In this document: positions 4,190 to 51,689 of the stretch, piece by piece
Position numbering within the stretch: position 1 is the stretch's first letter
How the letters are laid out: each line of letters starts with the position of its first letter
Assembly: GCF_004010195.1 (NCBI RefSeq)
Contig: NC_057746.1
Coordinates: 1,171,882-1,226,485, forward strand
DNA length: 54,604 nucleotides
Direction: 5' to 3'
DNA from: Chiloscyllium plagiosum
Lineage: Eukaryota
The notes under the pieces: model-generated
The model's database searches: none
What the model saw: only the letters and a program-made list of their open reading frames with translations
Told to the model about the DNA's origin: nothing
Program-made: the position numbers and the translations under genes

Positions 4190-4612
4190 GAATGGCGATG
4201 ACTGAGGTGCGAGGGAAAAGGGGATAAACGGCTGCGATGCCGGCTCGCGCCGTCAGAGGCTGCTATTTAAACGAGCGCACCTCCAATTGCAGCGCAGCTC
4301 GCGCGCTCTCAGATTTAAATTCCCGAACATTGGGCGCCAAGCGGATCAGAACTACATCTCCCGGCAGGCATCGCGGGTATGCCCTCCCTTGATTCCATAC
4401 AGTCTCCACTCACTACGCAGGCGCGCGGCCGACATGCGGCATGGGTAATGTAGTTCGGAGCGGAGTTGCGAGCGGTTTGGGTGATTTGAGCTGAGTCCCT
4501 GTGGAGATTTTAAACAACCTCAGTGAAGGGGGAGTTTTCTGGGCTTGGGGCCCAGAGTCCAGTCACGTTTAAGGAGATGGCATGTCCCTCCCTCCGTCAA
4601 ACACAGGTAGGT
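4190..4612. promoter_or_regulatory. CpG-island promoter with two inverted ZNF143/Staf-type motifs; candidate plus-strand first exon ending at 4606
   Basis: The densest non-repeat CpG patch I found in the window. ACTACATCTCCCGGCAGGC at 4351 (+) and ACTACATTACCCATG at 4454-4440 (-); NRF1-like GCAGGCGCGC ~4417; donor-like CAG|GTAGGT at 4607. Confidence 0.7.
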
Positions 4613-7452: not shown

Positions 7453-7453
7453 T

Positions 7454-8477: not shown

Positions 8478-8977
8478 NNNNNNNNNNNNNNNNNNNNNNN
8501 NNNNNNNNNNNNNNNNNNNNNNNNNNNNNNNNNNNNNNNNNNNNNNNNNNNNNNNNNNNNNNNNNNNNNNNNNNNNNNNNNNNNNNNNNNNNNNNNNNNN
8601 NNNNNNNNNNNNNNNNNNNNNNNNNNNNNNNNNNNNNNNNNNNNNNNNNNNNNNNNNNNNNNNNNNNNNNNNNNNNNNNNNNNNNNNNNNNNNNNNNNNN
8701 NNNNNNNNNNNNNNNNNNNNNNNNNNNNNNNNNNNNNNNNNNNNNNNNNNNNNNNNNNNNNNNNNNNNNNNNNNNNNNNNNNNNNNNNNNNNNNNNNNNN
8801 NNNNNNNNNNNNNNNNNNNNNNNNNNNNNNNNNNNNNNNNNNNNNNNNNNNNNNNNNNNNNNNNNNNNNNNNNNNNNNNNNNNNNNNNNNNNNNNNNNNN
8901 NNNNNNNNNNNNNNNNNNNNNNNNNNNNNNNNNNNNNNNNNNNNNNNNNNNNNNNNNNNNNNNNNNNNNNNNNNNNN
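8478..8977. other. Assembly gap of exactly 500 N, probably a placeholder scaffolding gap
   Basis: Round length; the other gaps are 34587-34781 (195 N) and 47347-48152 (806 N). Confidence 0.9.
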
Positions 8978-9031
8978 ATACTCCAGTTCCAGGTTTTACT
9001 TTATGTGTGAGACATTGAAACTGTTACTTAC

Positions 9032-9280
9032 ATTTCGGTTCCGGGGAGCCGCGGGACAGGTTCTTCCAAACATTTAAATTCTGTTTCATGATGGCGATAT
9101 TGGCTGAGATCCCCGCCTCTCCTCCCTGCATGACATGATTGTTAAACTCAGGGATCCGGGCCACCTCCTTCTTCAGGTTGAAATCCATGTATAAAACCTC
9201 ATCTCCGTCATCCTCCAGGTCAAACTGTTTATCGGGGCTGCTGTCCTGAGCCATGAAGACCGAGAGCTGTTCATGTTGGT
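9032..9280 (-). CDS. MHC class II alpha chain, exon 2 (alpha-1 peptide-binding domain)
   Basis: 249-bp phase 1-1 exon with (CT)n-CACAG acceptor and T|GTAAGT donor. Translation (Y)QHEQLSVFMAQDSSPDKQFDLEDDGDEVLYMDFNLKKEVARIPEFNNHVMQGGEAGISANIAIMKQNLNVWKNLSRGSPEPK contains the class II alpha DGDE..Y.DF, PEF and N62/N69 hallmarks and resembles nurse shark class II alpha as I recall it. Confidence 0.95.
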
Positions 9281-9939
9281 CTGTGAGAGAGAGAGAGGGG
9301 ATCAGACACTGAGAGAGTGACCCCGGGAGAAAACATCATTCAACAAGATCACCAATGAACACACATCAAACCCAGATAAAACTCCAGGAGGGAATGTTCT
9401 GGAAACATCCAGACTGATCGGGGATGTGTTATATCTCCACCTGTACCAATATCTTTGTGAACGTGGTTACTATCGGAGTTACTGTGGTTCATGGGGGGGA
9501 ATCATTATCCCCTCCAAATCAGGCAGGGACAACACACAGTGCCCTTAAATACTGAAACAAAAACAGAAAAGGCTGGAGAAACCTAGGAGGTCTGGCAGCA
9601 TCTATGGAAAAAGAGACAGAGTTAACGTTTCAGGCCCAGTGCTATAGGAGTGAGCATTTGAAGGGACTAACAGCCAGGAGCGGCAGAAAAGGCTTGGGCC
9701 TTTCTGTGCCCTAATGCAGTTCAGAGTAAACATCAGGGTAAGTATTACTCCTTGAAATACTTTATTTAGTTGAATACAATCAAGCAGTTTTTAATCTTAT
9801 TAAAAAAAACATATTAGACATAAATAGCTGGATTCAAATGAACTTCTTGAACAGTATAAAAAGTGTAGGGCATTCTCAAGAGGGATATCAGGAAAGCAAT
9901 GAGATAGCCTTGGCACATAAGATTAAGAGAAAATGAGGA

Positions 9940-10250
9940 ATGTAGATGCTGGAGAGATGGAGTCGAAAAGCACAGCCAGTCAGGAAGCATCCAAGGAGCA
10001 GGAGAATCAACATTTCAGGCATAAGCCTTTCATCAGGAATGTGGGTGGGAAGAGGGCTGAGAGATAAATGGGAGGGTGGGACTGGGAGGTAGGTAGCTGG
10101 GAAGGCAATAGGTAGTTGCAGGTGGGGGTGATGGTGATAGGGTGGAGTGGATAAGTGGGAAGGAAAATGGACAAGTTTTGAAGGTGGTGCCAAGTTGGAG
10201 GGTTGGATCTGGGATAAGGTAGGGGGAGAGGAAATGAGGAAACTCTGGGA
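9940..10250 (-). mobile_element. Penelope-like 3' tail fragment
   Basis: Reverse complement resembles 1015-1350; degenerate hammerhead core at ~10007-10036. Confidence 0.65.
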
Positions 10251-10269
10251 TGGGCATTGGCGACTGTGG

Positions 10270-13200
10270 GGCCCTCTATAGAATAACACTTGGGGCAGGG
10301 CTCTTGTTCCTACACTGGAGTGGTTGCAGCCTCTGTGTTCCCTGTACCTCCAAGGGCTTCATCGCCCTTTTCTCATTTGACCAAAATGTTCGGAGTGCAA
10401 TGTTCCGTTCACACTGAAGTGAGCACTGGGGCATGTGCAGCGCTGCATCGAACATGTAGAGGAAGGCAGTGTTCTTCCTGAAGAGTGAGTGGGTGGTGCA
10501 CCTCTCCCTGGAGAAGGGGCTTAGTGTCAGTGGCACGTTCTTGCCTGTCGACCCTCTGGAAGTAGTTGTTCAGAGGGTCATTTTATCGAACGTTCCACCC
10601 ATTGATGGTGATAGGGTGGAGTGGATAAGTAGGAAGGAAAATGGACAGGTAGGACAGGTTTTGAGGGTGGTGCCAAGTTGGAGGGTTGGATCTGGGATAA
10701 GGTAGGGGGAGGGGAAATGAGGAAACTCTGGGATGGGCATTGGCGACTGTGGGGCCCTCTATACAGTAACACCTGGGGCAGGGCTCTTGTTCCTACACCG
10801 GAGTGGTTTCAGCCTCTGTTCCCTGTACCTCCAAGGGCTTCATCACCCTTTTCACATTTGACCAAAATGTTCGGGGTGCAATGTTCCATTCACCCTGAAG
10901 TGAGCACTGGGGCATGTGCAGCACTGCATCGAACATGTAGAGGAAGGCAGTGTTCTTCCTGAAGAGTGAGTGGGTGGTGCACCTCTCCCTGGAGAAGGGG
11001 CTTACTGTCAGTGGCACGTTCCTGCCTGTCGACCCTCTGGAAGTAGTTGTTCAGAGGGTCATTTTATCGAACGTTTCACCCATTTTACCATCTGAGCTGC
11101 TTCTCTCCCACATCCACAGTTTGGGGAGGTGAGCTCTGGTGTGATGAAGCTGTTGCTGTGTCTGAAGGAGGCCCACCTGAGACATTTACTCCTTCTGATG
11201 GGTTTTTGTCTGTTGGCCCAGGGAGAGGTCTTGGAAGGTGTGTTTACAGTAGAGTAGTATTAGGGTGAGGCTTACTGGGTGTTCATGGAGGGTATGCGGT
11301 GTCACTATGGAGGAACTGGCATCCCTCGAAGGGCTGCTGCCAGCCCCCCCGAGCGTTCACGGCTGGCACTGTTACCTGTCCTCTCACAATACCACCTCAG
11401 CTTCCTGCGAAAGGAGCTACCTCGGCCCAGGATGCCAGGAAGATTCCCTGGGTGACCCTGAGACTTCTGGGACTCAGTATGGTGCGACTTCCCTTCTGGA
11501 GGATAGCGATCCCCAGGCCTGTCGAGAAATTGTGCGTTTTGGAGCCTGGCCTGAGGCAGATATGACTGGAAGCGGTAGAGAATTCCACTGGTCCATATAC
11601 AACTGGACTCTGTCTCAGTTAAAACTGCTTTAAAAACTCCTGGAGTTCCCCGATGGGGATGAGGGAGACCTGAGGCCCGTCGATGATAAATATGAGTGAA
11701 CGGGCAGTGCCCCCCAGCTTCCCCAGTCCCTCCCTTATCCTAAAACTTGTGAAAGAAAACAGAGGGAGGATGGTTGAGATGGGTGGGGTAGCAGCGAGAC
11801 AGTGGAGAGTTGGAGATGTCTCTTGTTCCCCACCCTCTTGGAAAAGGCACCATTCCTCAGGGTTAGAGGGACAGGGGAATCCGGTACTAACAACACCTCC
11901 CCACGGGTGAGGGAGTAGTTTCCCCTGGAAACCCCTCTCCCTCCTCACCAGGGGAGGAGGACATGAACACCCCCAACCCCCACCTATAGTTCATTGCAAC
12001 CAGATCAGGCCTCTCAAGGGTGAGGTGGGCGTGGCAGCTGAAGTCTTGCTGACGCCACAGGAACTGGAGGCTCTTGAGGTTTTCAGTGTGCCTACTGGGG
12101 ACTGAGGTGGACATTGTTACCCTGAGGTTATCCTAGATTGTAGCGCTGAAAGGGCAGGCCTCCCTGCTCTCCTAGGCCTTTATTTTAGGCTCCTCTGCCC
12201 TTACTACAGACCTTTATCCAGACACAGAGCCAGGAGTGGAGCAGGTTTCCAAACTGATGCCACCCAGAGGACCTGACATTTTAATCAACGTTTTAGTTGA
12301 GCCTGGTGTCATCCAGAACTTCGAGGGCTCTGCAAGGGATCCTGCTGCTGCTGATCCTATGGATGGGGTCAAGGCAGGGGTATGTCTAACCGGTGACCCC
12401 CTCGCCCCGCACCCGCTGTGGGGGTAGGGGTCAGTGGTCAGAGGCAACAATCTGGAGGAGCAGTGGGTGTTGGTTGGGAGCACTGCTGAGTTAGACAGAG
12501 CGGAGGGAGACGTGGTGCTCGTAGACAAGGTCTCCTTCATCCTCATCGGGGAACTCGAGTTTTTAAAGCAGTTTTAACTAAGACAGAGTCCAGTTGTATA
12601 TGGACTAGTGGAATTCTCTACCGCTTCCAGTCATATCTGCCTGGCAGCTATTGGCAGGCCCTGGAATGGGCAAGAACATAAAGAGGCTGTACCAGGGATT
12701 CCTTATCAGCATCCTCAGAGTGGAAGGGAAAAAGAGCCCTTTTGCCCCTGCTCAGTAAGTTAGGTTTCATTGTTTTAACTGGTGATGGTGGTGGTACATA
12801 CTGCAGCCATAAAGCCTCAATGTCAATGGCAGCAGAAAGGCCTGGCACAGATTTGGTATGCTCTTGCTCCTTGGGGAATGGGAGTATGCAGTGAGCCTCC
12901 TACAAGAAACCCCATACCGTTTCCGGAGATCAAGCTGCACAGTTCCTGGAGTGGCAGTGGAAGGGTCTTACTGAGTCACCTAGCTTCCAGTTCTGGCAGG
13001 GATGGCTACCTTGTTGGTCCCTTTCTTTCAGGTGGAGATTGAGGGTCAAGGGATGTGTACCAGGCCCGTGTGCTCCAGCTTATGCTTCATTTCAGAGACA
13101 TGTGAATGTATGTGTGCCTTGTATGGGACCTGACTAGACCACATGGTTCTTCGAGGAACTGTCTAATCTTCTTAGCTCCATCGATGAGGGCAAACTCATC

Positions 13201-15870
13201 TTCTTTGGGAGAGATTTCACTTGTACCCTGAGCAGCAGGACTGTGGTGGTACCTAGAAGAGCTCAGCATCGGTGGGGAAGCTGAGGGACTTGGTTAAAAC
13301 CTTTGACTTGGTAAATGTCTAACAAGCTCTCCATCCTGACTCCATCACCTTCACCGTCGTGAGGCCTGGAGTCAGAGCTCCAGAGTTGATCACCTGTACA
13401 TTTTGCGGGTGTACACCTCCTCCTTTCCGGTGGCCTCCACGCAGCAGGTGCCGTGCACGGCCCATTACCTGGTGTGAGCGGAGGTCCTACCATTTGGCAC
13501 CCACCTCGGATCCACATACTGGCACTTGAACAACCTGTTGCTGGAGGATGAGCACTTCCGGGACTCATTTCGTCGGTTCTGGGCCGGCTGGAGAAGGGAG
13601 CGGGGAAACTTCCCTTCCCAGAGGCTATGGTAGAAATCCAGGATTGAGGAGTTGGGGAAGGAGGTGTTCGACCTGGAGTCATGTCTCGGTCAGCCCGATG
13701 TGGACCCACCCTGTAGGGGGTGTACAAAGAGAAGAAGGCCGCGCTCCAGGACTTGCAGCTTGTTGGGTCCTGGGGCACATATGTGAGATCATGGACCAAT
13801 TCCTTCGGGATCTCCACTACAGCTCCCCCACTTGCACGGAGTTCTCCAGCAGAGGGACTGTTATATGGCTCCCTTCTCTCCAGATCCATCCAGTGAGGAA
13901 GCTGACAAAGTCCTGTCGCAGGTCAGCCCTGAGGGTGCTGAGAGGCCTGACTCCCTTCTAAGGCTAGAGGAGCTGACCAGTGCCCTCAACTGTCTTTCCA
14001 GGGGCAAGACACTGGGACTGGACAGGCTGACCGTGGAGTTCTGGAATGTTCTGGGAGGGTGACTGTGTGCAGATCTTGGAGGACTGTATCGTGACCGGAG
14101 AGATGCCCCTTTCTTGGAGCAGGGCCGTCATCACTCTGTTGCCTAAGAAGGGGGACCTCCGTTTGTTAAAGAATTGTTGGGAATGACCCATCTCCCTCCT
14201 CAGCATGAACTACAAAACCTTTGTCAGGGCACTTTGGATTCCCATTGGTACTGTGCTGGACCACATGATCCACCCAGACCAGTCCTCACTGTCCTGGGCC
14301 AGAGCATCCACAACAATATCCACCTGGTGCAGGACATGATCTATTAGTCTCAAAGGGCTGGTGAATCAAGCATATTCTTCTCCCTTGATCAAGAAAAGAC
14401 GTTCGACAGAGTGGATCACGAGGATCTGCTAAGGAGTCTGTGAGCTGTTGGATTCAGGATCCTAGTGCGTAGTGAAAGTCAACAGATCCCTGATGGTGTC
14501 CCTCCCCTTTGGGAGAGGTGTACGTCAAGGCTGCCCCCAGTTCGGCCAGCTGTATTTTCTACAACTATGATTTTACATCGAGCCTCCTCTTAGGATTTGA
14601 ACCCTGATGAGGTAATCTTCCATCAGTTGCACAGTCTCTATTACAATATGCAGTTCGTGTTCATGGAGAGGTCGCAGTCTTGGGTCTTTCTCCTAGAATT
14701 GCCTGACTTCCGTCTAGTAGGACTTATACACTTAATGGGAAGGTCCTAGGGAGTGTTGCTGAACAAAGAGACCTTGGAGTGCAGGTTCATAGGAGAGGCT
14801 GAACAGGCTGGGGCTGTTTTCCCTGGAGCATCAGAGGCTGAGGGGTGACCTTATTACGAAATTATGAGGGGCATGGATAAATAGACAAAGTCTTTTTTTC
14901 TGGGGTGGGGGAATCCCGAACTAGAGGGCATAGGTTTAGGGTGAGAGGGGAAAGATATAAAAGAGACCTAAGGGGCAACTTTTCCACGTAGAGGGTGGTA
15001 CGTGTATGGAATGAGCTGCCAGAGGAAGTGGTGGAGGCTGGTACAATTGCAACATTTAAGAGGCATTTGGATGGGTATATGAATAGGAAGGGTTTGGAGG
15101 GATATCGGCCGTGTGCTGGCAGGTGGGACTAGATTGGGTTGGGATATCTGGTCGGCATGGACGAGTTGGACCGAAGGGCCTGTTTCCATGCTGTACATCT
15201 CTATGACTCTGTGGAACTGATTGCAGTCTGGGACACGGTCGGCTCATGCCTGAACTCTCCCTCTATGGGAACGGCTGACCTCGCCAGGTTCCTCCTTGAG
15301 GGAGGAGAGAGCTGGGGATGCAGGGTTGACTAGAGTCTGGGATGGCTGGGTGACAGAAGAGCAGGCTGAATGCTGACCCCTATCCATCCGGACGGCAATA
15401 TCGATCTGCGCAGCAGAACCTTTCTCGTGGTGTGCTGCCTCACAAACTGAGCCACCTCAGACATAATCTCCTGATGCCCTTTTGCATGGCATCATTTGTA
15501 CGGGTTGATGCTCCACACTCTCTGATGCTGTGCTCTTACCCACCACCCAGACACACCTTAACACTTTGCCCTCCAACAGCAGAGATCCCCTGTTTAGGGC
15601 CCTCTTATGTCAGGGATTTGGGGTGGAGAGTGCGACATGTGGCGGTCCCGTGAAACTGGTGACTGAGCACGTTTGCCAGGTGCCAGGCTACGTTCACCTT
15701 CTGGTGCCTGCAGGAGATGGTGTTTCACATTTACGTTGAGTGTGTTTGTCTGCAGCCCCGTTTTGGTTCTTTGAGGGGGCTGCTGTTGAAATTTTGGCTA
15801 CATTTCAGCCCTACACTCCTCTGGATCCTTGGGTATCCGGTGCAGGGAAGCGTGGACAAGTCTACAAACC
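10270..15870 (+). mobile_element. Decayed L1-superfamily Tx1-like retrotransposon (ORF1 and ORF2), with internal duplication, inversion and a CR1 insertion
   Basis: ORF1 motif AVFFLKSEWVVHLSLEKGLSVSGTFLPVDPLE..QRVILSNV (twice). ORF2 motifs WHLNNLLLEDEHFRDSFRRFW (~13520), GLDRLTVEFW (~14015), SLDQEKTFDRVDHE (~14380), GRGVRQGCP (~14511), LLKFWLHFSPTLL (~15781). Confidence 0.8.
14717..15210 (+). mobile_element. CR1/HER1 LINE 3' fragment
   Basis: RLNRLGLFSLE..RLRGDL, SRTRGH, RVVRVWNELP; ends in CTCTATGACTCT tail. Confidence 0.85.
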
Positions 15871-15889
15871 TTTTTGTAGCTTTTTTGTT

Positions 15890-16855
15890 TAAAAGAGGTG
15901 GAGGGTTGTTTCTCAGACTGGAGGTGTGTTCCCAGCGGTGTTTCATAGGGATCTTGCTGGGTCCACTTTTGTTTGTCATTTATACAAATGATTTAGATGA
16001 GAATATAGAAGGCGTGGTATGTAACTTTGCAAATGACACCAAAATTAGTGGTATAGTGAATAATGAAGAAGGTTCTCTAAGATTACAAAGAGATCTTGAT
16101 CAAGTGGGTCAATGGGCTGAAATTTGGATAAATGTGAGGTATTATATTTTGATAAAACAAACAAAGGCAAGACTTATACAATTAAAAGTAGGGTCTTGGG
16201 TAGCCATGACTTGGAGATGCCGGTGGTGGACTGGTGTGGACAAAGTTTAAAAAATCACACAACACCAGGTTGTAGTCCAACAGGTTTATTTGGAAGCATT
16301 AGCTTTCGGAGCACTGCTCTGTCATCATTCATCGTATAATTGTGATGAACCTGATGAAGGAGCGGTGTTCCGGAAGCCAGTGCTTCCAAATAAACCTTTT
16401 GGACTATAACCTAGTTTTATGATTGTTTATTTAGTCTTGGGTAGAGTTGTAGAACAGAGACCTAGGGGCTTAGGTACATTAATTTTTTTGAAGTTTGCAT
16501 CACATGTTGACAGAATGCTTAAGAAGGCATTTAGCACACTTGCCTACATCACTCAGATGTAGGTATGAGTAAGGTGAATGGCAGGGGTATTTTCCCTTGG
16601 TTGGACGCTTTCAAGAATTGGAGGCATTTTTTAAGGTGAGAGGAGAAAGATTTAAAAGTAGTGGTTCATCTGTGGAATGAACTTCCAGAGGAGGTGGTGG
16701 GTGTGGGTACCATTACAACATTTCAAAGGCATTTAGGTAAATACATGAATAAGAAATGTTTGGAGGGATATGTGCCAAGCGCAGGCACATGGGCCTAGTT
16801 TAATTTGGGATTATGGTCAGTATGGACTGGTTGGACCATGCTGTATGACTCTATA
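15890..16855 (+). mobile_element. CR1 LINE RT fragment with nested short Penelope-derived hairpin (~16204-16433)
   Basis: LLGPLLFVIYTNDLD, FANDTKI, KCEVLYF; insertion flanked by duplicated GTCTTGGGTAG. Confidence 0.75.
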
Positions 16856-17169
16856 ATTAGCCAAGATAGACACATTAAACAATATATTTATAACCTACAA
16901 TGATTAACCTTTAATATAATGGAAGACAGGCAAAACGAAGCAATATCCCACAGAAGATGAACCAGTGTAAGATCTGAAATCCTGCCTCATCCATGGCACT
17001 ATGTGAATGGTGCTGGATAATTAAATATCTCACTGAACAAATTCAATGATGTTATCATCACACAATCAATATCCATTCACCAGAAACTGAACTAGACTAA
17101 CCACTTTGGGTATGAAAGCAAGTCAGCTACTGGGAATTCTGTGGCAAGTAATTCACCTCTTGACTTCCC

Positions 17170-19910
17170 AAAGCCTGTCAAGGAAACATAGAAAATCCTG
17201 AGAAAATGTAGGCCATTCAGCCCTTTGACCCTGCTCCACCACTCAATGCACTCATGGCCGATCATCATTCTCAGTAATTTGCTCACACTTTCTCTCCATA
17301 CCATTTGATACTTTAGCCCTACAAACTAACTCTAACTCTATAAAAACATTCCATGTTTTGGCCTCAACTGCCTTCTGTGGCAGCAAGTTCCACAGGCTCA
17401 CCACTCTCTGGGTGAAGGAATTTCATTGTCTTATAGAATCCCTACACAGTGGAAGCGGGCCATTTGGCCCATTGAGATCATATCGACCCTTTGAAGAGCA
17501 TCACACCCAATTTCTATAACCCTGCATTTTCCATGGCCAATCCATCTAATCTGCACTTCTTTGGACTGTGAGGGGAAACCAGAGCACCCAGAGAAAACCC
17601 ACGCAGATACAGGGAGATAGTGCAAACTCCCCACAGACAGAATGTGGAGGCAGGAATTGAACCCAGGTCCCTGGCACTGTGAGGCAGCAGTGTTAACCAT
17701 TGAGCCACCATGCCACCCCAGCAAAATAAGTATTTCTCCTTATTTCAGTCCTAAATGGTTTATTCCATAACTTTGAACTGTGACACCTGGTCCTGGATTC
17801 CCGAGTCACCTGGAACACCCTTCCTGTGTTTACCATGTCTGTTAGTGTTTTATAGGTTTCTGTGAGATCCTTCCGATCCTCATTCTTCTAAAACCCAATG
17901 ATACAGTTGTAACCGATCCAGTCTCTACTCATATTGTCAGTCCTTATCATCCAGGAATAAGTTTGGCAAACCATTGTGTATGCCTTCCATAGTCAGAATA
18001 TCCTTCTTCCAGTAAGGAATGCGAAACTATTCACAATATTCCAGGTATAGTCTCATCAAAGCCCTGTACAATTGCAGCAAGATATTGGACTCGATTCCTC
18101 TCACTATGAATGCCAACACATTATTTGTCATCTTCACCACTTGCTGCACTGAAACTCTTAGTTTCAGCAATTCGAGCACAAGGACACCCCAGTCTCTTAG
18201 TTTCTACCCCCTTTCCATATTTGTCACCATTCAGATGATCATCTGTCGTCTTGCATTTGCTACCACCGTGGATAACTTCTCATTAATCCACATTAGACAT
18301 CACATGCCATGCATTTGCTAATCACGCAACTTGTCCATATCACACTGAAGCATCTCTGCATCCTCCTCATAGTCCACACTTCCGTTCAGCTTTGTATCAT
18401 TTGCAAACCTGGAAATGGACATTTAGTTCCTTCGTCTAAATCATGAAAATATATTGTGAATAGGTGGAGTCCAAGCACTTAACTTTGCTAAACCCTGCTG
18501 ATCACTGGCTACCACTCAGAAAATGACACTGTATTCCTACCCATTGTTTCTTATTTATCAAACAGTTCTCTTTCCATGTCAGTACTCTCTCCTCAATCGC
18601 ATGCACTTTAAATTTTACACACTGATCTGTTATGTGGGACACTATTGAAAACCAACTGAAAGTCCAAATAATTCACATCTGCAGACCAATTCGACTAGTT
18701 ACAGCCTTTGAAGAATTCCAGTAGTCATAAAGTCATAGAGAGCTACAGCACAGAAAGAGGCCGTTAGGCCCAACAATTCTGTACCAATTGAAAACAGCGA
18801 TCAAAAATTCTAATTCCCCCCTTGGCCCACAGCCCGTGTGCCTTGGCACCGTGCTTCTAAATGCTTTTCAATGTTAGAGGATTTCTGTCTCTACCATCCT
18901 TTCATACTGATTCCCACCATCCTCTGAGTGCAAACCTTTATCCTCATCTCTCCATAGATTTATCATGTGTGATTTCCCTTTCATACATCTCTGACTTTGT
19001 CCAATCCTATCACTTTCTTATTAAATCTTTGATAATTGACTCCATCATTTGCACAACTACCAATGTCAGGCTAACTAAGTGTCTAATTCCCTTTTTTTTT
19101 CTCTGCCTCCCTTTTTGAATAATTAGCAACCCTCTAATCCATAGGATTTGTTCCAGATTGTACAAAATTTTGAAAGATGACCACCAATGAATCCACTCTT
19201 TCCAGGGCCATTTTGGAAAATATTGTGGAATATGGATGATCAGGCCATGAGGATTTATCAATCTTTAATTATAAGATTTCCCAACACCATTTCTTCACTA
19301 ATACTGATTTCTTTAGTTCCTCCCTGTCACAAGACCCTATGTTCCCAACATTTTTGAGACATTATTGGTGTTCTTCTTTGTAAAGATGGAATCAAAATAT
19401 GTATTTAATTAGTTTGTCATCTCTTTGTTCTCCATTATAACTTTCCTATTTGTGACTGTAAATAACTTATATTTGTTGTCATCATTTATTTTCACTTCAT
19501 GCACTTATAAAAGCTTTTACAGTTAGTTCTGTAAGTTCTTTGCAAGCTTATTCTCGTACTGTATTTTACCTCTACTTTATTTGGCCAATTTGTACATCCC
19601 TTCCTTGGATCTAATACTATCTGTAATTTCCCTTGCTAGTCATGGCTAGGCCATCTTCCCATTTTGTACCAGACCGGAAAGAACAATTGTTGCAGTTCAT
19701 CAATGCATTCTTTAATTGTTTCCCATTTTCTATTCTCTATCATCCCTTTGAGTATGGTTCCATAACTTACCGTAGCCATCTCGTACCTCATATCTTAGTT
19801 TCCTTTATTTGGATTCAGGACCCTCATCTTAGAATTGACGCTGTCACTGTCCATCCTAATGAAGAATTATGTTCACTCCTCATAAAGGGTCTCGCAAAGC
19901 CAGATTGCTA
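17170..19910 (-). mobile_element. Degenerate CR1-type LINE fragments
   Basis: Minus-strand RT remnants such as LVSLTLVVVQMMESIIKDLI and a FANDTKL-like motif near 18390-18410; CR1-like 3' end near 17190. Confidence 0.65.
17432..17722 (-). mobile_element. HE1-type tRNA-derived SINE
   Basis: tRNA-like head GGCATGGTGGCTCAATGGTTAAC...GGGTTCAATTCC (A/B boxes), central GTTTGCAC...TGCGTGGGTTT core, CR1-like tail. Confidence 0.85.
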
Positions 19911-22280
19911 ATGATCCCTTTTATTTTCACCAACTACAAGCTAGGAAGGAATACTCTCCACCCTGCCTGGATGAATGTCACCTCACTAAGTTTGCAGATG
20001 TTGAAGGCCTGTGTTAATGGGTATTGAGGCTGAGGTTGAACAGAGATGGGTATTTTGATGAAACTAGAATTAGGTTGAGTTTGGGTATCAGCTCAGCATC
20101 AATGATAAAAGCATCAAACTGTTATTTTATAAGCACTATTACACAATTAAGTTTTCAGTGAGAATTAAACTATTGCTCAATACTGCAACTTTGACATAGT
20201 TTGACTTTACAAGTCGATATTTGTTGATATGACTGGTGTTAACCTCGAGAGTTTTATTATTAATTCCAAGTCAAAAGATTTTTTTTCTCATGGAGACAGG
20301 ACCTGGCTATTCGCTTTCTGTTTAGTATTGTATCATTGTAGTCAATAAAAATTACCATCATCCATCCTTGCACTGTAAGATGTTACAGGATGTACAGCTA
20401 GGACAGATATTAAGGTCAATAAATGGAGGCCAGTCAAATTTCAAAAGCAATTCCTGCTTGAAATATGCTAACCAATCCTCTTGTCTCCAAACAGATCTGG
20501 CATATAAAATATACACTGTGTGGCTACTAGGTACTGGATTCTTCACTGTCAGTGTGAAACATTTGCAACTCAGATTTAACTTAATGGCAGCAACATAACA
20601 AACAAATTCAACCTCTTCTATGCCAAGTATCTTGTCACCTGTGAACAGAGCTAATGGCTGGTGAACAGTTTTTAGGAGCTATGTCAAGGCCTCCCAACAC
20701 CAACCTGTCTCTGAATCTGATTCACTTGTCTCATCACTTCCTGTCCCTTTCTCTCAAAGGACTTTATCTTCCAAAATCTAAATGTTAGATTTAGATGTAT
20801 CACAATAAGGAAAGACACTGACTAACTGAGGGATGTGAATCTGTGTAATTCTTTATTGCAGAGGGCTGTTGAGGCAATCAGTGTATTCAAGGCTGAGTTA
20901 GATTTTTGATCAGCAAAGGAATTAAGGGTAATGGGGAAATACAGGAAAAAGAAATTGAGGATTATCAGATCAGCCACAATCTCATTGAATGACAGGGCAG
21001 ACTCAATGGGCTGAATGGCTTACATCTGCTCTATGTCTAATTGTCTTATGGTGTCCCACACTGTTACCTCTGGGGTTGCTGTGGTGAGTGGGATAAATGC
21101 ATTTAAAGGAAAGCTACTTAAGTATATGAGAGAGAATGGGATAGAAGTAGAGAAGGAAGGATGAAATGAACTTGAGTAGAACATGACTCATTTGGCTGAA
21201 TGATGGATTCTGTGTGGTATATGGTACCCTGTTGTGTGATTTATTCCTCTTATTTATGTGCTCTTCCTTGTCAACATCACCCTAAAATACTGCATTAAAT
21301 TTCCACATGTAAACTGGCAACCTGCAGCTTAATCTCACCAACACCTCTTTGCCATCCTATCACTATCTCTGATTTGTCATGTTGCCTGTCCGACGTCCAG
21401 AACTGGATAACCAGAAATTTTCTTCAATTAAATTTTAGGAAAATCAAAGCCATTAGTTTCAGTCTGTGATGTAAATATAATTTTCTGACTACTGACTCCA
21501 TTCCCATACCTGACCACACACTGAGACTGAACCAGACTTTACACAGATATGTGTCTTACATAAGCCAGAGCTGATCTTCCAATCCTATGCCTTCTCCATC
21601 ACTGAGACTGTCCACTTCTATCTCTGGAACTTCTCCTGCTTCAGCTTCGTCACCACACATTCCACCTTTAAAATCTGAACTTTTCCAAAAGTCTGCTGTC
21701 TGGATCCAAACTCACATGAAATTCAGTTTACCTGAGCTTGTTGATCTGCATTGATTCATCTGGCAATACTTCAAGTTTAAACTTCTCATCATTGTATTCA
21801 AATTAGTTCATGGCTTCATTATTCCCTATTTTTGTAACCTCCTCCAGCTTAACAATCCCCTCACAACTCTGCATCCCTCCAACCATTGGTGGAAATCTCC
21901 TTCTAAATCAATTCTTTGATCAAGCAGGTCACTCCTTATAGAATTCCTTCTCGGAAACAAGTTTTACTCTGATTATATTTAGTGAAATACCTTTGGGTCA
22001 TCATGCCATGTAAAAGGCACTATTTAAATGCAAGTTGTAGTACAGTCTAAGTTACACACAGTGAATGGTATGGTTCAGATCTGATGTAACTCATGTTCTT
22101 CCCAAATGTAGGATCTTAGCTCATTGTCTTTTGATGCTTTACCTGAAGGTGTTTTGTTGGCTGTTTCTGTCCGTGGTGGTTTGAAATTACCTTCCACTCA
22201 GAGGGAAAGGGTGACTGGATAAGACTTTGATTTACAACAGCCAAAACACAAATTAAGCCAATGCTTTTTGGCATTATTGA

Positions 22281-22466
22281 GGGTGGCACAGTGGCTCAGT
22301 GGTTAGCACTGCTGCCTCACAGCACCAGGGACCTGGGTTCGATTCCATTCTCGGGCGACTGTGGAGTTTGCACATTCCCCCTGTGTCTGCGTGGGTTTCC
22401 TCCGGGTGCTCCGGTTTCCTCCCACCGTCCAAAGATGTGCAGGTTAGGTGAGTTGGCCATGCTAAA
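22281..22466 (+). mobile_element. HE1-type SINE, 3'-truncated
   Basis: GGCACAGTGGCTCAGTGGTTAGCAC...GGGTTCGATTCC head plus core. Confidence 0.85.
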
Positions 22467-22740
22467 TAAAAATCCTGGAACTGGATTTTCGGCTTCAGTG
22501 TGGGAATTGGGAGGTGGATCATTTCCCAGCATCATGATCCTGCTTCTACCCAGACAGTGGATTTTCAACAGAGGGAGCTGGGGCAGGAATGGAGCCAGGC
22601 CGGAACAGCAACACTGAAGGGGGATGGTTTAAGCAGAACTGGGTCAAATGGGCTAATACAGATTTGTCTCGATGTCATCTTCATATTGCAAGAAATCCAA
22701 GCTCTCCACTGAAGGAAGTATTACAGTTGGAACTCTATTC

Positions 22741-23049
22741 TGGGCACAGTGGCTCAGTGGTTGTTGCTGCTGCTTCACAGTGCTAGGGACCCGGGTTCGA
22801 TTCCAGCCTCAGGCAACTGTCTGTGTGGAGTTTGCACATTCTCCCCGTGTCTGCTTGGGTTACTTCCCACAGTCCAAAGATGTGCAGGTCAGGCGAATTG
22901 GTTATGCTAAATTGCCCGTAGTGTTAGGTGCAGGGGCAAACATAGAGTATTAGGGTGAGGGAATGAATTTGGGTGGATTACTCTTGGAGGGTTAGTGTGG
23001 ACTTGTTGGGCCGAAGGGCCTGTTTCCACATTGTAGGGATTCTATGATT
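22741..23049 (+). mobile_element. HE1-type SINE, part of the left arm of the inverted duplication
   Basis: A/B boxes, core and GTAGGGATTCTATGA tail. Confidence 0.85.
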
Positions 23050-23417
23050 ATTGTGAACCAAAAGCTTGCTGTTTATCCAACTGAAGTAACCAAGCCCTAC
23101 AGCACAAATACCTAGGCAGTAAACGATATAATGCAGCCACATTTTTATACACTTACAAGTTTTTATTTTCAAGAACTCATTGTTATTATTGTGTATGTTA
23201 TACCACTTTTGGAACTCATAACCAATTAATTGCCCCAGTTGAAAGAGATGTTATTACCACACTGAAACCAAAACAATCATTTCATCCCCAGTTAATAACC
23301 AATACTTGAGTGTAATTAAGCACCCAGTTAATAAACAATTAATGACACTGTACCGAGCCCAGTCATGTCATATATTAATATCCATATATCATTACATTTT
23401 ACAGTTTTATAACTCAC

Positions 23418-23484
23418 ATTTCACAGCCAAGGTTCCTTGAAGTAAAACCAGCATTAATATAGTAATGTAACATCCAGCTTCCAT
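23418..23484 (-). CDS. MHC class II alpha chain, exon 1 (signal peptide)
   Basis: AGAATGG start context; MEAGCYITILMLVLLQGTLAVK plus T then GTGAGT donor (67 nt, phase 1). Splicing to exon 2 makes T+AC = Tyr and keeps the frame. Hydrophobic leader directly downstream of an X-Y-TATA promoter. Confidence 0.92.
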
Positions 23485-23618: not shown

Positions 23619-23690
23619 TATTTATAAACCAATCACCAATCGAGATCTCCTTCATCAGCTGTTTCCAGGTGAAATTCAAACTTGTTCTGT
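23619..23690 (-). promoter_or_regulatory. MHC class II alpha proximal promoter (S-X-Y and TATA)
   Basis: Minus strand: weak S-like AGAAC ~23688; X1 CCTGGAAACAGCTG 23669-23656; 19-nt spacer; Y GTGATTGGTT 23636-23627, preceded by a second GATTGG; TATAAATA 23626-23619; about 140 bp upstream of the ATG. Confidence 0.88.
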
Positions 23691-25289: not shown

Positions 25290-25333
25290 AACCAATCTGA
25301 TCACAGCCTGACTGACCATCAGCTGTCTTTGGG
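25290..25333 (-). promoter_or_regulatory. Distal X-Y module in the same orientation as the alpha gene
   Basis: X1 CCCAAAGACAGCTG 25333-25320 (continues ATG, as in the proximal promoter); 20-nt spacer; Y CAGATTGGTT 25299-25290. Confidence 0.65.
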
Positions 25334-30499: not shown

Positions 30500-30690
30500 T
30501 GGTACTAGAGGGCGCCATGACATTACCGTGCTGTACAGAAAAATGAGACTATCCCAACAAGTTCACCCAGAGACAGGTGACTCTTCAGGAAGCTGGATTG
30601 TTATTGGCCAGCGCCAGGATTTAAGTCGGTTTGTATTTATTTTTTGTGTGTACTTCTCGTCTGTGGTTTCACTTCTGGGGACTTTCCAAA
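30500..30690 (+). promoter_or_regulatory. Inverted distal S-X-Y module with upstream CTCF-like motif and downstream RUNX, IRF-like and NF-kB sites
   Basis: ACTAGAGGGCGC 30504-30515; S-like GAGACT 30545-30550; X1 CCCAGAGACAGGTG 30566-30579 with X2 TGACTC; 20-nt spacer; Y GTTATTGGCC 30600-30609; TGTGGTTTCACTT 30662; GGGACTTTCC 30678-30687. Confidence 0.8.
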
Positions 30691-37940: not shown

Positions 37941-38699
37941 ACTAGGGAGGGAGAGGCATTGTGTTGCTCTTTCAAGGAGCCATCGCATGTCCCGTCCGCC
38001 TCATGGGTGTTCTGTGTCACTGCACAATGTCTAAAATTCGTTCTAAGGATTGCGGTGCTGTGGTCAAGACCTGCATTCGTTCCCCATCCCTAATTGCGTA
38101 GAAAGAAAAGGTCATTCTCAATGCAACTACATGGTGTTGTTGCTCCTTTCGAAAGGAAGTCAAGAGCAGCATGGGTGTGCATTGTTAGTCCATGTAAACC
38201 AAACCTGACAGATTTCCTTCCATAAACCAGCAGTTTTTAAACCACAGTCAGGTATTTTATTGCCATCTTTACTATTGCTAGTTCTTTTATTCCCGATTTT
38301 TATTAAATCAGTTGAATTTAAATTAAGGTGGAATTTGGTCTCATGCCTCCAGATAATTAGACCAGATCTCTGGGTGAGTTCTGAAGAAGTGCGAGATCAG
38401 ATTTGAAATATTAACTCAGTTTTTTCTGTCTGCACAGGTGTTGCCAGACTTGCTGAGTTTCTTCAGCATCATCTTTGTTTGCTTTGGCCAGTCTGAGCCA
38501 TTAATATTAAATCATTGACCAAAGACAAGTTTTGGAGGTTTGACTGAAGTAAAAGAGACACTGCAAGGAAAAATCCTTTACACTATGTTAAGATGTGATT
38601 AGCTGATGTAAGATTGGGTTAACTACAGACTTTATAAAGATTAGACAGCCTGCCAACAGGCCGTGCCTTTTAATATTTTCCATTCCATAAATATCCAGA

Positions 38700-39020
38700 A
38701 TCAAACCTTCACCAGCCTAATCTACCCAGTGACTGATGACTCCTATTTGTGATTGGCCGTGTGGTAACCACAGTAATGTTTACATCCCATGACGGTGTCA
38801 GTCAGACTGTATAATGTGGAGTCAGGTTGATAGGGACTTTCCAAATCCATCTCCAACTGTGAACACACTAAATAAACCACAAGAGTCAGTGTTAATCCTC
38901 AATCCAGTCTCAGGAACAGGGACTTTCCAACGAAACCGTGAATTACCGGTAAGACATAACCTGCCTCTCCCCCAACACTAAACAAACCATATTTATCTGC
39001 TGTCACCAAAGGAAGTCAAT
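38700..39020 (+). promoter_or_regulatory. Inverted distal S-X-Y module with 10-bp X-Y spacer and tandem NF-kB sites
   Basis: S-like CAAACCT 38702-38708; 16-nt spacer; X1 CCCAGTGACTGATG 38725-38738 with X2 TGACTC; Y GTGATTGGCC 38749-38758; RUNX palindrome TGTGGTAACCACA 38760; GGGACTTTCC at 38833 and 38919; AAAGGAAGT ~39008. Confidence 0.72.
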
Positions 39021-39764
39021 GTCAATTCTCATGCTGCAAAGGCTGACATTCATTCTCCACCCATCATTGCCCTTATAGCATTTGGTGATAACAACACAGA
39101 ATGGAATGAGGCTATTTGGCCGAATGAAACTGCATCAGTATTTTCAAACAGTAATCTAGTTATTCACACCCACCTATCTTTCCATTATTCCCTGCATTCT
39201 TTTCTCTTTTTTTGAGTATTTATTTTTTTCCCTTTTGAAAGTTACCGTTGAATCTGCATCCACTGCCCTTGCAGACAGTACATTCCAAATCCTAACCACA
39301 CATTGTGGATAAAGTAAGGTTTCATCTTGCCTTTGGCTTTTTACCCACTTATTAACCCTATATTGCCATTTGAAGCCATTTTTCCTTTTAAACTCCCTTT
39401 GACCCCTTAACTTTAAACCTGCTGAGCGTTTCTAGTATCCTTTATTTTTATTACAGATTTCCAGTTTTGGTTTTGTACAGTCAGTAAGCTGCAGCGTGCT
39501 GACCTTTGCTGGGCGACAATTCCAAGCTGACTTTACCCAGTAATTCAAGGATACTCTGCAGGACTCAGTAGTTAATTGGTCAAAACTGGCTAAGTATTGT
39601 TTCAACCGCAGTTTGATTGAGTAACAAGGGCGATGTGAGCAGTGATATTGAATGGGAGCCAGGGCCTTTCACATGAAACCGTTCCTAACTGTTACACACC
39701 CATTTGCTAGCGCTCTGAGTCTCCCAGCAAATATAGAGCAGTGAACATCAATATCCATGTGGAT

Positions 39765-42373: not shown

Positions 42374-42440
42374 ATGAACTCACTGAGAGAGTTCTCTCAG
42401 CAACAGATGACAGTCTGTGTTCTGCTGATCCTATTGGTTG
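42374..42440 (+). promoter_or_regulatory. S-X-Y module, either an inverted distal enhancer or the promoter of a divergent gene
   Basis: S-like TGAACT 42375-42380; 15-nt spacer; X1 CTCAGCAACAGATG 42396-42409 (HLA-DRA X1 is CCTAGCAACAGATG); 20-nt spacer; Y CCTATTGGTT 42430-42439. Confidence 0.8.
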
Positions 42441-42905
42441 ACGGTGTAGCTGCCTGAGCTTGTCTCCAGTGGGGTTGGTCAGGTGAACAAACAGAAGCTG
42501 TGGCTTTAGTCTGTTACCCTTGTCTTCTCTCACACACAGTTCACATGGACTCTCTCCAAACTCTGACGCATGCAACACACAAATGCTTATTTGGTAATAT
42601 TCTTTGAAACAGTTTTGATTCAAACAATACTAAAATTAATTTCAGTTTCAGCCATCAAACTCACTTATTTCTGGTGGTAAAGACACAGTCTGAAGTCAAG
42701 GTGAAGAGATGGTCATGTTACTCTGACCCCCATTAAGGTATGGACTGAAAAGTGATAAATTACATTGACCTGGTCATCTCCAACATGAGAGATACTTATC
42801 ACTGTCTCTAAGTATTCAATAGCATTATCATCACTGAATCCTACACTGTATTGAGGGCATAAACTAGGGGTTATCTCTGAATAGAAACCAACATCACAGC
42901 ACATC

Positions 42906-43128
42906 TTCAGTACTGACTCTCTGACAGTGCAGCATTCCCTCAGTACTGACCCTCTGACAGTGTGGCATTCCCTCAGTACTGACCCTCTGACAGTGTGGCA
43001 CTCCCTCAGTACTGACCATCTAACAGTGTGGCACTCCCTCAGTACTGACCCTCTGACAGTGTAGCACTCCCTCAGTACTGACCATCTAACAGTGTGGCAC
43101 TCCCTCAGTACTGACCCTCTGACAGTGC
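42906..43128. repeat. 33-bp minisatellite, about 6.7 copies
   Basis: Unit CTCAGTACTGACCCTCTGACAGTGTGGCACTCC; units 4 and 6 share the variant CCATCTAA. Confidence 0.92.
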
Positions 43129-43129
43129 A

Positions 43130-46100
43130 GAGTGGATGGGGTTCCTTTGTACATAAGGAATGAAATTAAATCAATAGTAACAAACAAAGTAGGGTCAGAT
43201 GGTGTAGAATCTGTGAGGGTTGAAATGAGGAACTGCAAAGGTGGGAAAACCATAATTGGAATTATGTACAGGCCTCCAAACAATAGTGAGGAGATGAGGC
43301 GCAGGAGATGGGAAAGATGTGTAAGAAAGGCAAAGTTACAGTGATCATGGGGGAATTTCAATGTGCAGGTGGACTGGGAAAATGAGGTTGGTCGTGGATT
43401 ACAAGAAAAAAAATTGTGGAATGTCTATGAGACGGCTTTTTGGAGCAGCTTGTGGTGGAGCTCACCAGGGAACAGGCAATACTGGACTTAGTGTTGTACA
43501 ATGAGGCAGACTTAATAAGGGAGCCTAAGATGAAGGAATCCTTAGGAGGCAGTGGTCATAACACAATCAAATTTACTCTGCAATTTGAGAGGGATAAGGT
43601 AGAATCAGAGGTAACGGTTTTACAGCTAAATAAAGGCAACTACAGAGGCATGAGGAAGACGCTGGAGAGTTGACTGGGAGAGGAGCCCAGCAGGAAAGAC
43701 AGTGGAACAGCAATGGCAGCAGTTTCTGGGAGTAATTCAGGAGACAGCAGAGATTCATCCCGAGGGAAAAGAAGGATGGTACAGGGAGGGTGAGGCAACC
43801 ACGGCTGACTAGGGAAGTCAGGGATAGCACAAAAGCAAAAGAGAAAGCATATAATGTGGCAAAGGGCAGTGGGAAACCAAGGGATTAGGAAGCTTAGACC
43901 AACACAGGTCCAAGGAAATGGCTGAGGAACTGAATAATTACTCTGTGTCAATCTTCACTGTTGACCACACGAGTAATATCCCAAAACTTTTAAAGAGTGA
44001 GGGGGCAGAGTTGAGTATGGTGGCCATCACCAAGGAGAGGATGCTAGAAAAACTGAATGACCTGAAGGTGGATAAATCACCTGGACCAGATGGACTAAAC
44101 CCCAAAGTTCTAAGGGAGATAGCTGAAGAGGAGGTAATAATGGTGATCATTCAGGAATCACTAGAGTCGGGAAGGGACCCAGAGAACTGGAAAATCACTA
44201 ATATGATACCTCTATTCAAAAAGGGAGTAAGGCAAAAGATGGAAAATTACAAACCAATTAGCCTAACCTCAGTCATGGGTAAGATCTTGGAATCCATTGT
44301 GAAAGATGAAATTTCTGAATACTTGGAAGTGTATGGTAAAATAGAGCTGAAAATGTGTTGCTGGAAAAGCGCAGCAGGTCAGGCAGCATCCAAGGAGCAG
44401 GAGAATCAACATGAGCCCTTCTTCATGCCCGAAACGTCGATTCCCCTGCTCCTTGGATGCTGCCTGACCTGCTGCGCTTTTCCAGCAACACATTTTCAGC
44501 TCTGATCTCCAGCATCTGCAGTCCTCACTTTCTCCTCTATGGTAAAATAGAGCAAATTCAGACTGGTTTCATCAAGGGGAGGTCATGCCTGACAATGTTA
44601 GAATTCTTTGAGGAAGTAACAAGCCGATTAGACCATAGACAGCCAATGGATGTTATCTGCCTGAGTTCAAGAAGGCCTTTGACAGGGTGCTGCACAGGAG
44701 GCTACTGAGTAAGATGAGGGCCCATGGTGTTAGAGGCAAGGTGCCAGCATGGATAGAAGCTTGGCTGTCTGGCAGAGAGTGGGGATAAAAGGGTCCTTCT
44801 CAGGATGGCAGCTGGTGACAAGTGGTGTTCCGTAAGGCTCAGTGTTGGGATCACAACTTTCCACTTTATATATTAATAGAGTCATAGTCATAGAGAATCA
44901 TAGAGATATACCAACACGGAAACAGACCCTTCAGTCCAACTCGTCCATTCCAACCAGATATCCTAAATTAATCTAGTCCTATTTCCCAGCACTTGGCCCA
45001 TATCCCTCTAAACCCTTCCGTACACCACCACCCTGTGCATGAAAAAGTTGCCCCTTAGGTCCCTTTTTATATCTTTCCCCTCTCACCCTAAACCTATGCC
45101 CTCTAGTTCTGGACTCCCCGACCCCAGGGAAAAAACTTTGTCTATTTACCCTATTCGTGTCCCTCATGATTTTATAAACCTCTATAAGGTCACCCCTCAG
45201 CCTCCAACGGTCCAGGGAAAACAGCCCCAGCCTATTCAGCTTCTCCCTGTAGCTCAAATCCTCCAACCCTGGCAACATTCTTGTAAATCTTTTCTGAACC
45301 CTTTCAAGTTCATTACATTCTTCCGATAGGAAGAAGACCAGAATTGCACACGACATTCCAAAAGTGGCCTAACCAATGTCCTGTACAGCCACAACATGAC
45401 CTCCCAACTCCTGTACTCAATACTCTGACCAATAAAGGAAAGTATACCAAACGCCTTCTTCATTATCCTATCTACCTGCGACTCCACTTTCAAGGAGCTA
45501 TGAACCTGCACTCCAAGGTCTCTTTGTTCAGCAACACTCCCTAGGACCTTACTATGAAGTGTCCAAGTCCTGATTTGATTTGCTTTTCCAAAATGCAGCA
45601 CCTCATGTTTAACTCCATCTGCCACTCCTCAGCCCATTGGCCCATCTGGTTAAGATCTCATTGTAATCTGAGGTAACCTTCTTCGCTGTCCACTACACCT
45701 CCAATTTTGGTGTCATCTGCAAACTTACTAATCATCCACCATCACTCTCTGTCTTCTACCTTTGAGTCAGATCTGAATCCAAATGGCTAGTTTTCCCTAT
45801 AGTTCTAGTTGAAGGAACTGAGGGCATTCTGGCTAAGTTTGCAGATGACACAAAGATAGTCGAAGGACAGGTAGCATTCAGGAGGCAGGGAGGCTGCAGA
45901 AGAATTTGGACAGATTAGGAGAGTGGGCAAAGACATGGCAGGTGGAGTACAACATGGGAAAGTGTGAGGTCATGGACTTTGGTTGGAAGAATAGAGGCAT
46001 GGACTATTTTCTAAATTGAGAGAAAATTCAAAACTTTGAAGTACAAAGAGATTTGAAAGTCCTAGTTCAGGATTCTCTCAATGTAAACTTGCAAGTTGAG

Positions 46101-50190: not shown

Positions 50191-51689
50191 TTTCCAAATG
50201 CAACTTTCACAAAGACATTCTGCCTGGCAACTGATGACACATTATAGTTGTGTAATTTCAATGGTTGGAGCATGTTTCTCTCTATAAAATTAATGACACT
50301 TGGCAGATTGAGGCGCTGGGGTGGACCTGTTTGTTTGCTGCTCTGGTTGGGGATTTTCCAGTCAGGCCCTTCCCCCACCCTGTGTATTAGAACCTGAGTG
50401 AAACGACCTTTGCTTGCTGTATTTCTCAGTATATTGTAACCATACTTACATCTTAATAAACTTCTCATGTGCCATCCTGCCTATCTGATTTTGTTCTCTG
50501 CTGAACAACTTATCTTACAACTCCACTCAGTTCCTCCAGATAAAGGTGTTGCCTGGGTGCCTGCCTTTTTGTGGGATATCTGGAGTGTTTCTTGTTCTTA
50601 TGCCTCCTCTCTCCCCCCCCCCCCCTCTCTTTTCCAGTACATTGATGACTCTATCAGTGCCATTTTCTGCTCTTGCCCCAAGGTGAAAGTTTTATTGGCT
50701 TTGTCTTGAAAGGAAGATCTCTCAGTCTCCTAGTTCAAGTCTCCACCATGAGAAGAAACACTCACCTGATATCTACCCTATGCAGTGCCCTCAGGATCTC
50801 ATGTTTCAGCAAAATTACCTCTAATCTTCAATGGGTAAAGGCCCAAACTGTTAAACCTTTCTTCATTAGATAAGATCTTCATTCCAGATCTTCTCTGAAC
50901 TGCTTCTAAAGCAATAAATACATACTTTGTACAGTTTTAATCTCCAAATTAAACAGTAGTATAGATTTGATCTCACCAATGCCGCATTAAGCAGTAAATA
51001 CCGTATTTCTGTATTCCATTCCCAATGCAGTAAATCAATATCCCATTTATCTTACCCTACTGTTGCTGTACCTGTACACTAATATTTTGTGGTTCAGAAA
51101 CATATTAATAAATATTCATTAAAAACAGTGACTCCCAGTTTCCTCAACTACTTTCTCATATTCCTCTTCCTGTACAGACTAGATTCATTTCTCTGTTACA
51201 TCTGCTCTGACAGTAGTACCTGATCGAGTCTGTTTCACTAGTTAATATAAATGTGGCTGAACTTTGACCTCAACTTCACAATCTTTGTGTGGTCTTGTGG
51301 AAAGTAAATTGGATAGGCCTGAATGTATCTAAGAGAAAGTGAGCACTGCAGATGCTGGACATCAGAGTCGAAGAGTGTGGTGCTGGAAAAGCACAGCCAG
51401 TTAGACAGTGTCCGAGAAGCTGTAAAATCGACTGGTCGACTTTCCTGCTCCTCAGATGCTGCCTGACCAGCTGTGCTTTTCCAGCACTACACTCTTCGAC
51501 TCTGAATTTATCTAGAAGCCTCTGCTTTGTGTCGTCAGCCACTAGGTTTATAAAGAGATGACGATCAATAATTTTTGCAGCAATTATTCTCCCTTTATCA
51601 CAGTTTGAAGGATATTAATGATGACACAGCCTCCAGTTTATTCCAATCCAGTATTACTGGTGGATGAGTTTCCATCCATTAACCAATGG

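Follow-up and report, generated by a model that had tools for sequence, protein, structure and literature searches.

An MHC class II alpha gene of Chiloscyllium plagiosum has five S-X-Y-type modules upstream of the one at its promoter, and one of these, with its X box at position 38725, joins perfect X and Y boxes across a spacer one helical turn shorter than in its sisters and is followed by two perfect kB sites. All positions refer to the window, the whole stretch of 54,604 nucleotides that was analysed. Judging from its sequence and setting, this 38725 module is likely to be a real enhancer, and one that may be inducible if its kB sequences alone are a guide. Our preferred interpretation, to which we would give about an even chance, is that it is a distal, inverted enhancer of S-X-Y type derived from a canonical module, and that its protein assembly would be weaker or CREB-free and its capture of CIITA reduced, the deficit being buffered by its surroundings.

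The labels S, X, X2, Y, kB, RUNX, IRF and NFAT, as we use them in the window, are assignments by motif resemblance. The element occupies 38703-38930 of the plus strand, from an S-like hexamer to the second kB site. The hexamer, AAACCT (38703-38708), was found by motif scan exactly 16 bp before the X box, but its label is a weak one, taken from a short motif that is poorly matched in the sister modules (RRACCY has a frequency of 0.002 per position). The X1 box (38725-38738), a predicted RFX site, was recognised by an X-box consensus and by a matrix built without it. The X2 position, TGACTCC (38737-38743), offers only a CRE/AP-1-like half site, in the same register as the TGAC or TGAT of all five sister modules, and a spacer of 10 bp (38739-38748) separates the X box from the Y box, GTGATTGGCC (38749-38758), an inverted CCAAT with its full flanking consensus and a predicted NF-Y site. 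Directly 3' of the Y box lies an inverted pair of TGTGGT motifs of RUNX type (38760-38772), with a third copy at 38876-38881, all of them candidates from a motif scan. The spacings of 16 (S-X) and 10 (X-Y) are those described in the initial annotation of this DNA, and the exhaustive motif count that it had proposed, now run, agrees with it on the positions of the X, Y and kB sites.

The X box of this module is the sole match without mismatch to the X-box consensus in the window, where 0.02 would be expected and 2 of 100 shuffles gave one. On a matrix trained on four other modules of the window, which had themselves been chosen with that consensus, it scores 15.1 and ranks seventh in the window, or third outside the training set. 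Simulated windows contain 0.47 X matches scoring at least 15.1 and 0.03 that also have an ATTGG at a spacer of 5-35, and none of 60 combined such an X match with a Y box at a spacer of 9-11. The full CCAAT consensus is not enriched across the window (6 found against 10.89 expected, the copy at 38749-38758 being one of the six), and a nearby ATTGG is a weak criterion, being true of 13% of window positions. A better X box 10 bp upstream, which would restore a spacer of 20 bp, was sought at the module and not found, and no ATTGG stands at a spacer of 19-20 from the existing X box.

The decamer GGGACTTTCC, which we take to be the consensus kB site, occurs three times in the window, as had been claimed, and always on the plus strand; 0.13 copies are expected and none of 100 shuffles reached three. 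Two of these copies form kB site 1 (38833-38844) and kB site 2 (38919-38930) of the 38725 module in the decamer count, each with a trailing AA, and the motif scan likewise confirmed GGGACTTTCCAA at 38833 and 38919. The AA follows directly after all three perfect sites (30678, 38833 and 38919), which has a probability of about 4e-4 by composition, and their flanks are unrelated; on the reverse strand, kB plus AA reads TGGAAA, presumably an NFAT-type site. The further claim that the perfect sites lie downstream of a Y box on the same strand is also correct, the distances being 68, 74 and 160 nt, and the three sites amount to only two independent clusters. Looser kB matches show no enrichment in the window (13 against 10.15 expected). 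The three perfect sites and one GGGATTTTCC sit 108-194 nt 3' of an X box, in three of the four plus-strand modules; the remaining nine of the 13 looser matches have no X box at a comparable distance upstream. Recent duplication was considered as the origin of the common 12-mer and rejected, since 18 comparisons between the flanks of four kB sites all failed to beat shuffles (107 of 1000 shuffles for the best comparison); homology between the flanks of kB site 2 and those of kB site 1 is not detectable.

The class II alpha gene was identified from two minus-strand exons. The coding part of its leader exon (23419-23484) is identical at 21 of 22 residues to P0002, an annotated class II alpha chain of Chiloscyllium punctatum (E 5e-15). 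The alpha-1 exon (9033-9280) lies in the minus-strand frame 9027-9335, which matches Pfam MHC_II_alpha (E 7.5e-14), and its core of 84 residues resembles 26 proteins at 63-81% identity, those that are named all being elasmobranch class II alpha chains. The phase-1 donor of the leader and exon 2 together give the K-Y-Q junction seen in P0002, across a first intron of about 14.1 kb (9281-23417) that is packed with retroelement pieces. The alpha-2, membrane and later exons were not found in the readable window, which has a gap of N at 8478-8977. Downstream of these exons we noted an inverted repeat at 7453-8437, of retroelement origin, with arms of about 480 nt that are 95% complementary around a 22-nt loop, and, about 4.6 kb past the alpha-1 exon, a stretch rich in CpG and containing GCGC repeats (4200-4460), which resembles the promoter of another transcript.

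Six X-Y modules were found in the window, one promoter-proximal and five upstream, spread over 27 kb between 23627 and 50359. The promoter-proximal module (23627-23669, minus strand) has a spacer of 19 and stands 185 bp from the ATG; a second ATTGG is present there at a spacer of 12, so that a short X-Y distance occurs in that module too. The first sister module (25292-25333, minus strand, spacer 20) is 1.8 kb upstream in the gene's own orientation. Three further sisters are on the plus strand with spacers of 20, those at 30566-30687, which includes the third perfect kB site at 30678, and at 42396-42437 both being inverted, and that at 50223-50359 having a Y box with one mismatch and then GGGATTTTCC at 50350. 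Only the 38725 module has a spacer of 10, against 19-20 bp in the other five. Chance would supply 0.03 combinations of X and Y at a spacer of 20 in the window, where four modules match. The ATG of the gene is 15,241 bp from the 38725 X box, and this module lies upstream of the gene, inverted and facing away from it, as do all four distal modules, the two nearest to the gene facing towards it. The distal module of HLA-DRA is inverted as well.

Outside their motifs, neither the modules nor the kB flanks have detectable homology to one another, so the modules are not recent duplicates. When the modules at 30566 and 38725 were compared, no comparison of upstream, linker or spacer sequence beat shuffles; the whole modules score 40, where shuffles reach at most 36, but the motifs themselves account for this. 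The arrangement suggests that the shark class II alpha gene has upstream control built from several modules, as in the mammalian distal S'-Y' system, and three of the modules have kB sites next to them. In the 30566 module, an IRF/EICE-like GAAGTGAAA on the minus strand (30667-30689) lies immediately next to the perfect kB site, and on this account the 30566 module is a better enhancer candidate than the one at 38725. The module with the one-mismatch Y box is followed by TATAAAA at 50283, a short hydrophobic frame that starts with ATG, and GGGATTTTCC; by its sequence, this stretch (50223-50400) might act as a promoter or be what decay has left of a first exon. A 33-bp minisatellite (42866-43160) lies near the 42396 module.

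We regard the class II alpha gene as the likely target of the 38725 module, its promoter being the nearest. All four plus-strand modules point away from this gene, and alpha and beta genes are described as lying close together in elasmobranch class II regions, with one to four copies of each, in the accessible part of one paper (PMC10751288); the modules might thus serve a class II beta or other gene to the right of the window, instead of the alpha gene or besides it. We consider this possible but on the unlikely side, and it is compatible with the other interpretations discussed below. Against it, a Pfam search of 54 reading frames out of the 154 listed (at least 80 aa, from 25.3-54.5 kb) turned up neither class II beta nor any other family, so that, sequence gaps apart, no such gene was seen within 15 kb to the right.

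The arrangement has parallels in other species. Modules of the distal S'-Y' type near HLA-DRA, in Ii and elsewhere in the human class II region bind RFX and CIITA, examples being DRAe at -2.3 kb, the S'-Y' and Y''-S'' of Ii/CD74 and sites #2, #4, #6 and #8 (available sections of PMC2677874 and PMC1802633). Like these, the shark has additional S-X-X2-Y modules kilobases from the promoter, several to a locus, and the 38725 module retains the order of the boxes and, with its putative S box, an S-X distance of 16. Unlike them, it belongs to a cartilaginous fish, it has an X-Y distance of 10 rather than about 20, its binding of RFX and CIITA is a prediction, and it carries two perfect kB sites within 200 bp at a distance of 15 kb from the gene. 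With the promoter-proximal class II S-X-Y, on which RFX, CREB, NF-Y and CIITA form an enhanceosome (PMC4381081 and PMC2278383, in the portions accessible), it has in common the order and orientation of X1, X2 and Y; canonical promoter-type spacing belongs to the 23669 module and the four other sisters and not to the 38725 module, which is off the promoter and has an XY length about 10 bp below the 47-49 bp of MHC-II genes (PMC4381081, same portions).

In the MHC class I system, enhancer A consists of kB sites. The class I region, which combines enhancer A, an ISRE and an SXY acting via NLRC5, resembles the shark element in placing SXY beside inducible elements and in an S-X distance of 16, if the shark hexamer is an S box, and offers a precedent for odd X-Y spacing, in that NLRC5 targets have X-Y distances of 20-22 with 48 bp at H2-T10 and H2-T22 (accessible text of PMC4374748). 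The shark module differs in that its neighbour is a class II alpha gene, its odd spacing is shorter and not longer, and its kB sites are on the Y side. Elsewhere, and within the parts of each source open to us, SXY motifs are present in opossum (PMC1351924), X-Y distances of 16-25 are given for bats (PMC5437515) and an NF-kB motif is given for DQA promoters (PMC6155461). X-Y spacing was looked for, and not found, in the accessible parts of PMC3868913 and PMC2192087, and the word 'promoter' is absent from the main text, supplements apart, of PMC8010645, PMC10751288, PMC7677710 and PMC4219347. In the literature searched, which took in few subscription papers, we found no account of shark class II promoters, S-X-Y or distal modules. 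A metagenome collection, in which shark DNA is not to be expected, gave 0 matches to X plus Y at spacers from 3 to 30, a result that is uninformative. An E-box/CCAAT geometry of 10-12 bp (PMC4889920, available excerpts) was considered as a parallel and not adopted, there being no CACGTG at the module and the side of the E-box not being established.

By anatomy, the 38725 module has X1, Y and the half site of X2, and by position it is a distal element, with 15.2 kb between it and the ATG of a class II alpha gene whose own module stands 185 bp upstream; its X-Y spacing of 10 bp is outside the 19-22 bp or so that defines the S-X-Y module, however, and we therefore treat it as a variant rather than a member. 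Rigid spacing is commonly illustrated by the X-Y distance in the class II enhanceosome. With 10 bases less, and 10.5 bp to the turn, the boxes depart from phase by 17 degrees, so that helical phase is preserved, as the initial annotation maintained. The X2 half-site and ATTGG are only 8 bp apart, compared with 18 bp in the modules with 20-bp spacers, and the retention of phase consequently does not guarantee room for the proteins. In the structure of NF-Y on DNA the histone-fold part spans about 13 bp on the side facing X and would overlap X2. As this is more than the 8 bp available, a weaker or CREB-free assembly and reduced capture of CIITA are to be expected.

In the mechanism that we prefer, the 10-bp spacer would be what remained when a canonical 20-bp module lost one helical turn, an event that may be recent in this lineage. 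RFX is predicted to occupy the X box, NF-Y the Y box and NF-kB both downstream sites, and the element would loop to a class II promoter and add a signal-responsive drive to it. With one turn lost, RFX and NF-Y would remain on one face of the helix while the X2 site becomes crowded; as a probable result, the proteins would assemble less cooperatively and CIITA would be captured less well than at the sister modules. The short spacer would be tolerated because the sister modules and the kB sites supply function.

A different view, which we think somewhat unlikely, is that the 10-bp spacer is old and selected, with RFX and NF-Y one turn closer, probably without a CREB-type X2 factor, in a compact complex coupled to NF-kB. 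The shortfall is indeed one turn, 17 degrees off phase, and selection for phase would be expected to retain a deletion of exactly that length; X and Y are perfect matches, and the S-like hexamer keeps its distance of 16 from X. A recent deletion would leave the boxes just as perfect, however, and the histone-fold footprint described above would leave too little space before X2. Among occupied sites, those with 48 bp between X and Y at H2-T10 and H2-T22 are non-standard (PMC4374748, as accessible), and RFX5 occurs at other distances from CCAAT besides its peak at 29 bp (PMC4889920, available excerpts). No functional one-turn-short class II module, and no functional X-Y spacer of 10 bp, is described in the literature searched, within the same scope of few subscription papers and with several sources accessible only in part. 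In a human survey, so far as its text was accessible, XY boxes measure 47-49 bp in MHC-II genes and 46-50 bp in CIITA-regulated genes, with one at 63 bp; sites that are bound but unregulated vary widely in length, and the model used has a minimum of 39 bp, which places one-turn-short sites at its edge (PMC4381081).

Four sequence runs were compared with the window over 38100-39700. In run X1, from the same species, one contig spans the stretch with two substitutions, both outside the module, and no gaps, and repeats the short spacer. The absence of gaps argues against an assembly slip; the run is possibly the source of this DNA and hence not independent. Depth over the module corresponds to one contig in runs X1 and X17, and to one plus a partial second copy in run X14, against hundreds to thousands over the adjoining repeats, which excludes an origin from a transposon or LTR. 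A single-cell RNA run, of which about 2 parts in 100 were read, had depth in 5 of 30 bins, all of them repeats and none on the module, and is too thin to count.

In species C, 7 of 268 positions are substituted over 38681-38948, against 72 of 1358 in the flanks (one-sided Fisher p=0.036), the flanks being the six other listed contig pieces on the unique path, with a seventh, repeat-derived piece left out. This points to modest constraint on the module core in species C, on a marginal, post hoc result of one test in one species. The same contig of species C has 23 inserted bases somewhere within 38681-38948, in or around the module, and a contig of species B has the same net excess of 23 bases over 38336-39036. 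An adjacent contig of species C carries 22 bases that fail to align immediately ahead of 38933, suggesting an indel directly after kB site 2. Gap-cost arithmetic lets only 8-13 of the 23 bases fall after kB site 2, with 10-15 then elsewhere in 38681-38932, under three of five schemes, and allows all 23 to fall outside the spacer under the two lenient ones; it is a hint only, since it depends on the scoring scheme and the two contigs of species C are possibly different haplotypes. Relative to species B or C, bases are also missing in this lineage at about 38205, 39036 and 39674.

The second copy in species B (run X14, record 13) aligns over 38620-38739 with 15 differences in 120 positions, about 87% identity, stops at 38739, the first base of the spacer, and matches again over 21 letters that start at 38833, at kB site 1; it thus retains the S-X part and the first kB site. 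To judge from this alignment, species B may have a further class II locus, or an old haplotype, that carries a separate version of the element. The position at which it stops, and the 23 extra bases that the relatives have somewhere in the interval, speak against an old, selected short spacer. In a comparison that has no outgroup to polarise the indel, it appears about as likely that the turn was lost recently as that the short spacer is old.

The initial annotation had proposed a real inducible enhancer with altered RFX/NF-Y geometry. Its enhancer part is supported by context: the location upstream of a class II alpha gene, the five canonical sisters, the single-copy depth, the modest constraint on the core and the second copy in species B. 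Altered geometry as a working design is so far no more than a possibility, given the 23 further bases that species B and C have in or near the module and the lengths of CIITA-regulated XY boxes noted above from the accessible part of PMC4381081.

An improbable alternative holds that RFX/NF-Y/CIITA function has been lost altogether by recent deletion, and that whatever activity is left would stem from the kB and RUNX-type sites alone. The order, orientation and spacing of S-X-Y are termed highly or strictly conserved (PMC2278383 and PMC1802633), and strict conservation of spacing in functional modules can also be cited from PMC4381081, as far as each of these is accessible. Redundant canonical modules lie on both sides, and bases are missing at several nearby places of this lineage within 1.6 kb. 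Yet X, Y and both kB sites are without decay, the same-species contig is identical inside the module and helical phase is preserved; moreover, CIITA targets with imperfect S or Y boxes (PMC2278383), and others without clear S or Y boxes (PMC2278383 and PMC1802633), are known from the available text of these papers. That the whole is a chance cluster of motifs, an assembly slip or a transposon or LTR promoter is very improbable and largely refuted. The window is indeed rich in repeats and has many CCAAT and loose kB matches, but by depth the module is present once, the contig of the same species is free of gaps and shuffle expectations are 0.02 to 0.13.

Of the two results, the six-module array is the firmer; if one lineage has recently lost the turn, as our preferred reading would allow, the array is also the main result and the 38725 element only a minor variant. 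The more ambitious possibility, which we think unlikely, is that sharks keep a conserved S-X-Y compacted by one turn, where RFX and NF-Y would bind together with no X2 factor and which, linked to tandem NF-kB sites, would be the member that responds to inflammation among six modules controlling class II genes. Were it true, the enhanceosome would tolerate a geometry shorter than that reported for CIITA-regulated genes in the literature searched. In any case, a natural module that is one turn short, with perfect boxes and five canonical neighbours, is a ready test of phase against absolute distance and of whether the X2 factor is dispensable. One minor observation concerns the sequence runs themselves: runs X1, X3, X4 and X5, which belong to one study and have 122-195 million letters, contain 81-94% of the words of 38400-39400, matching far larger sets, and may be enriched libraries.
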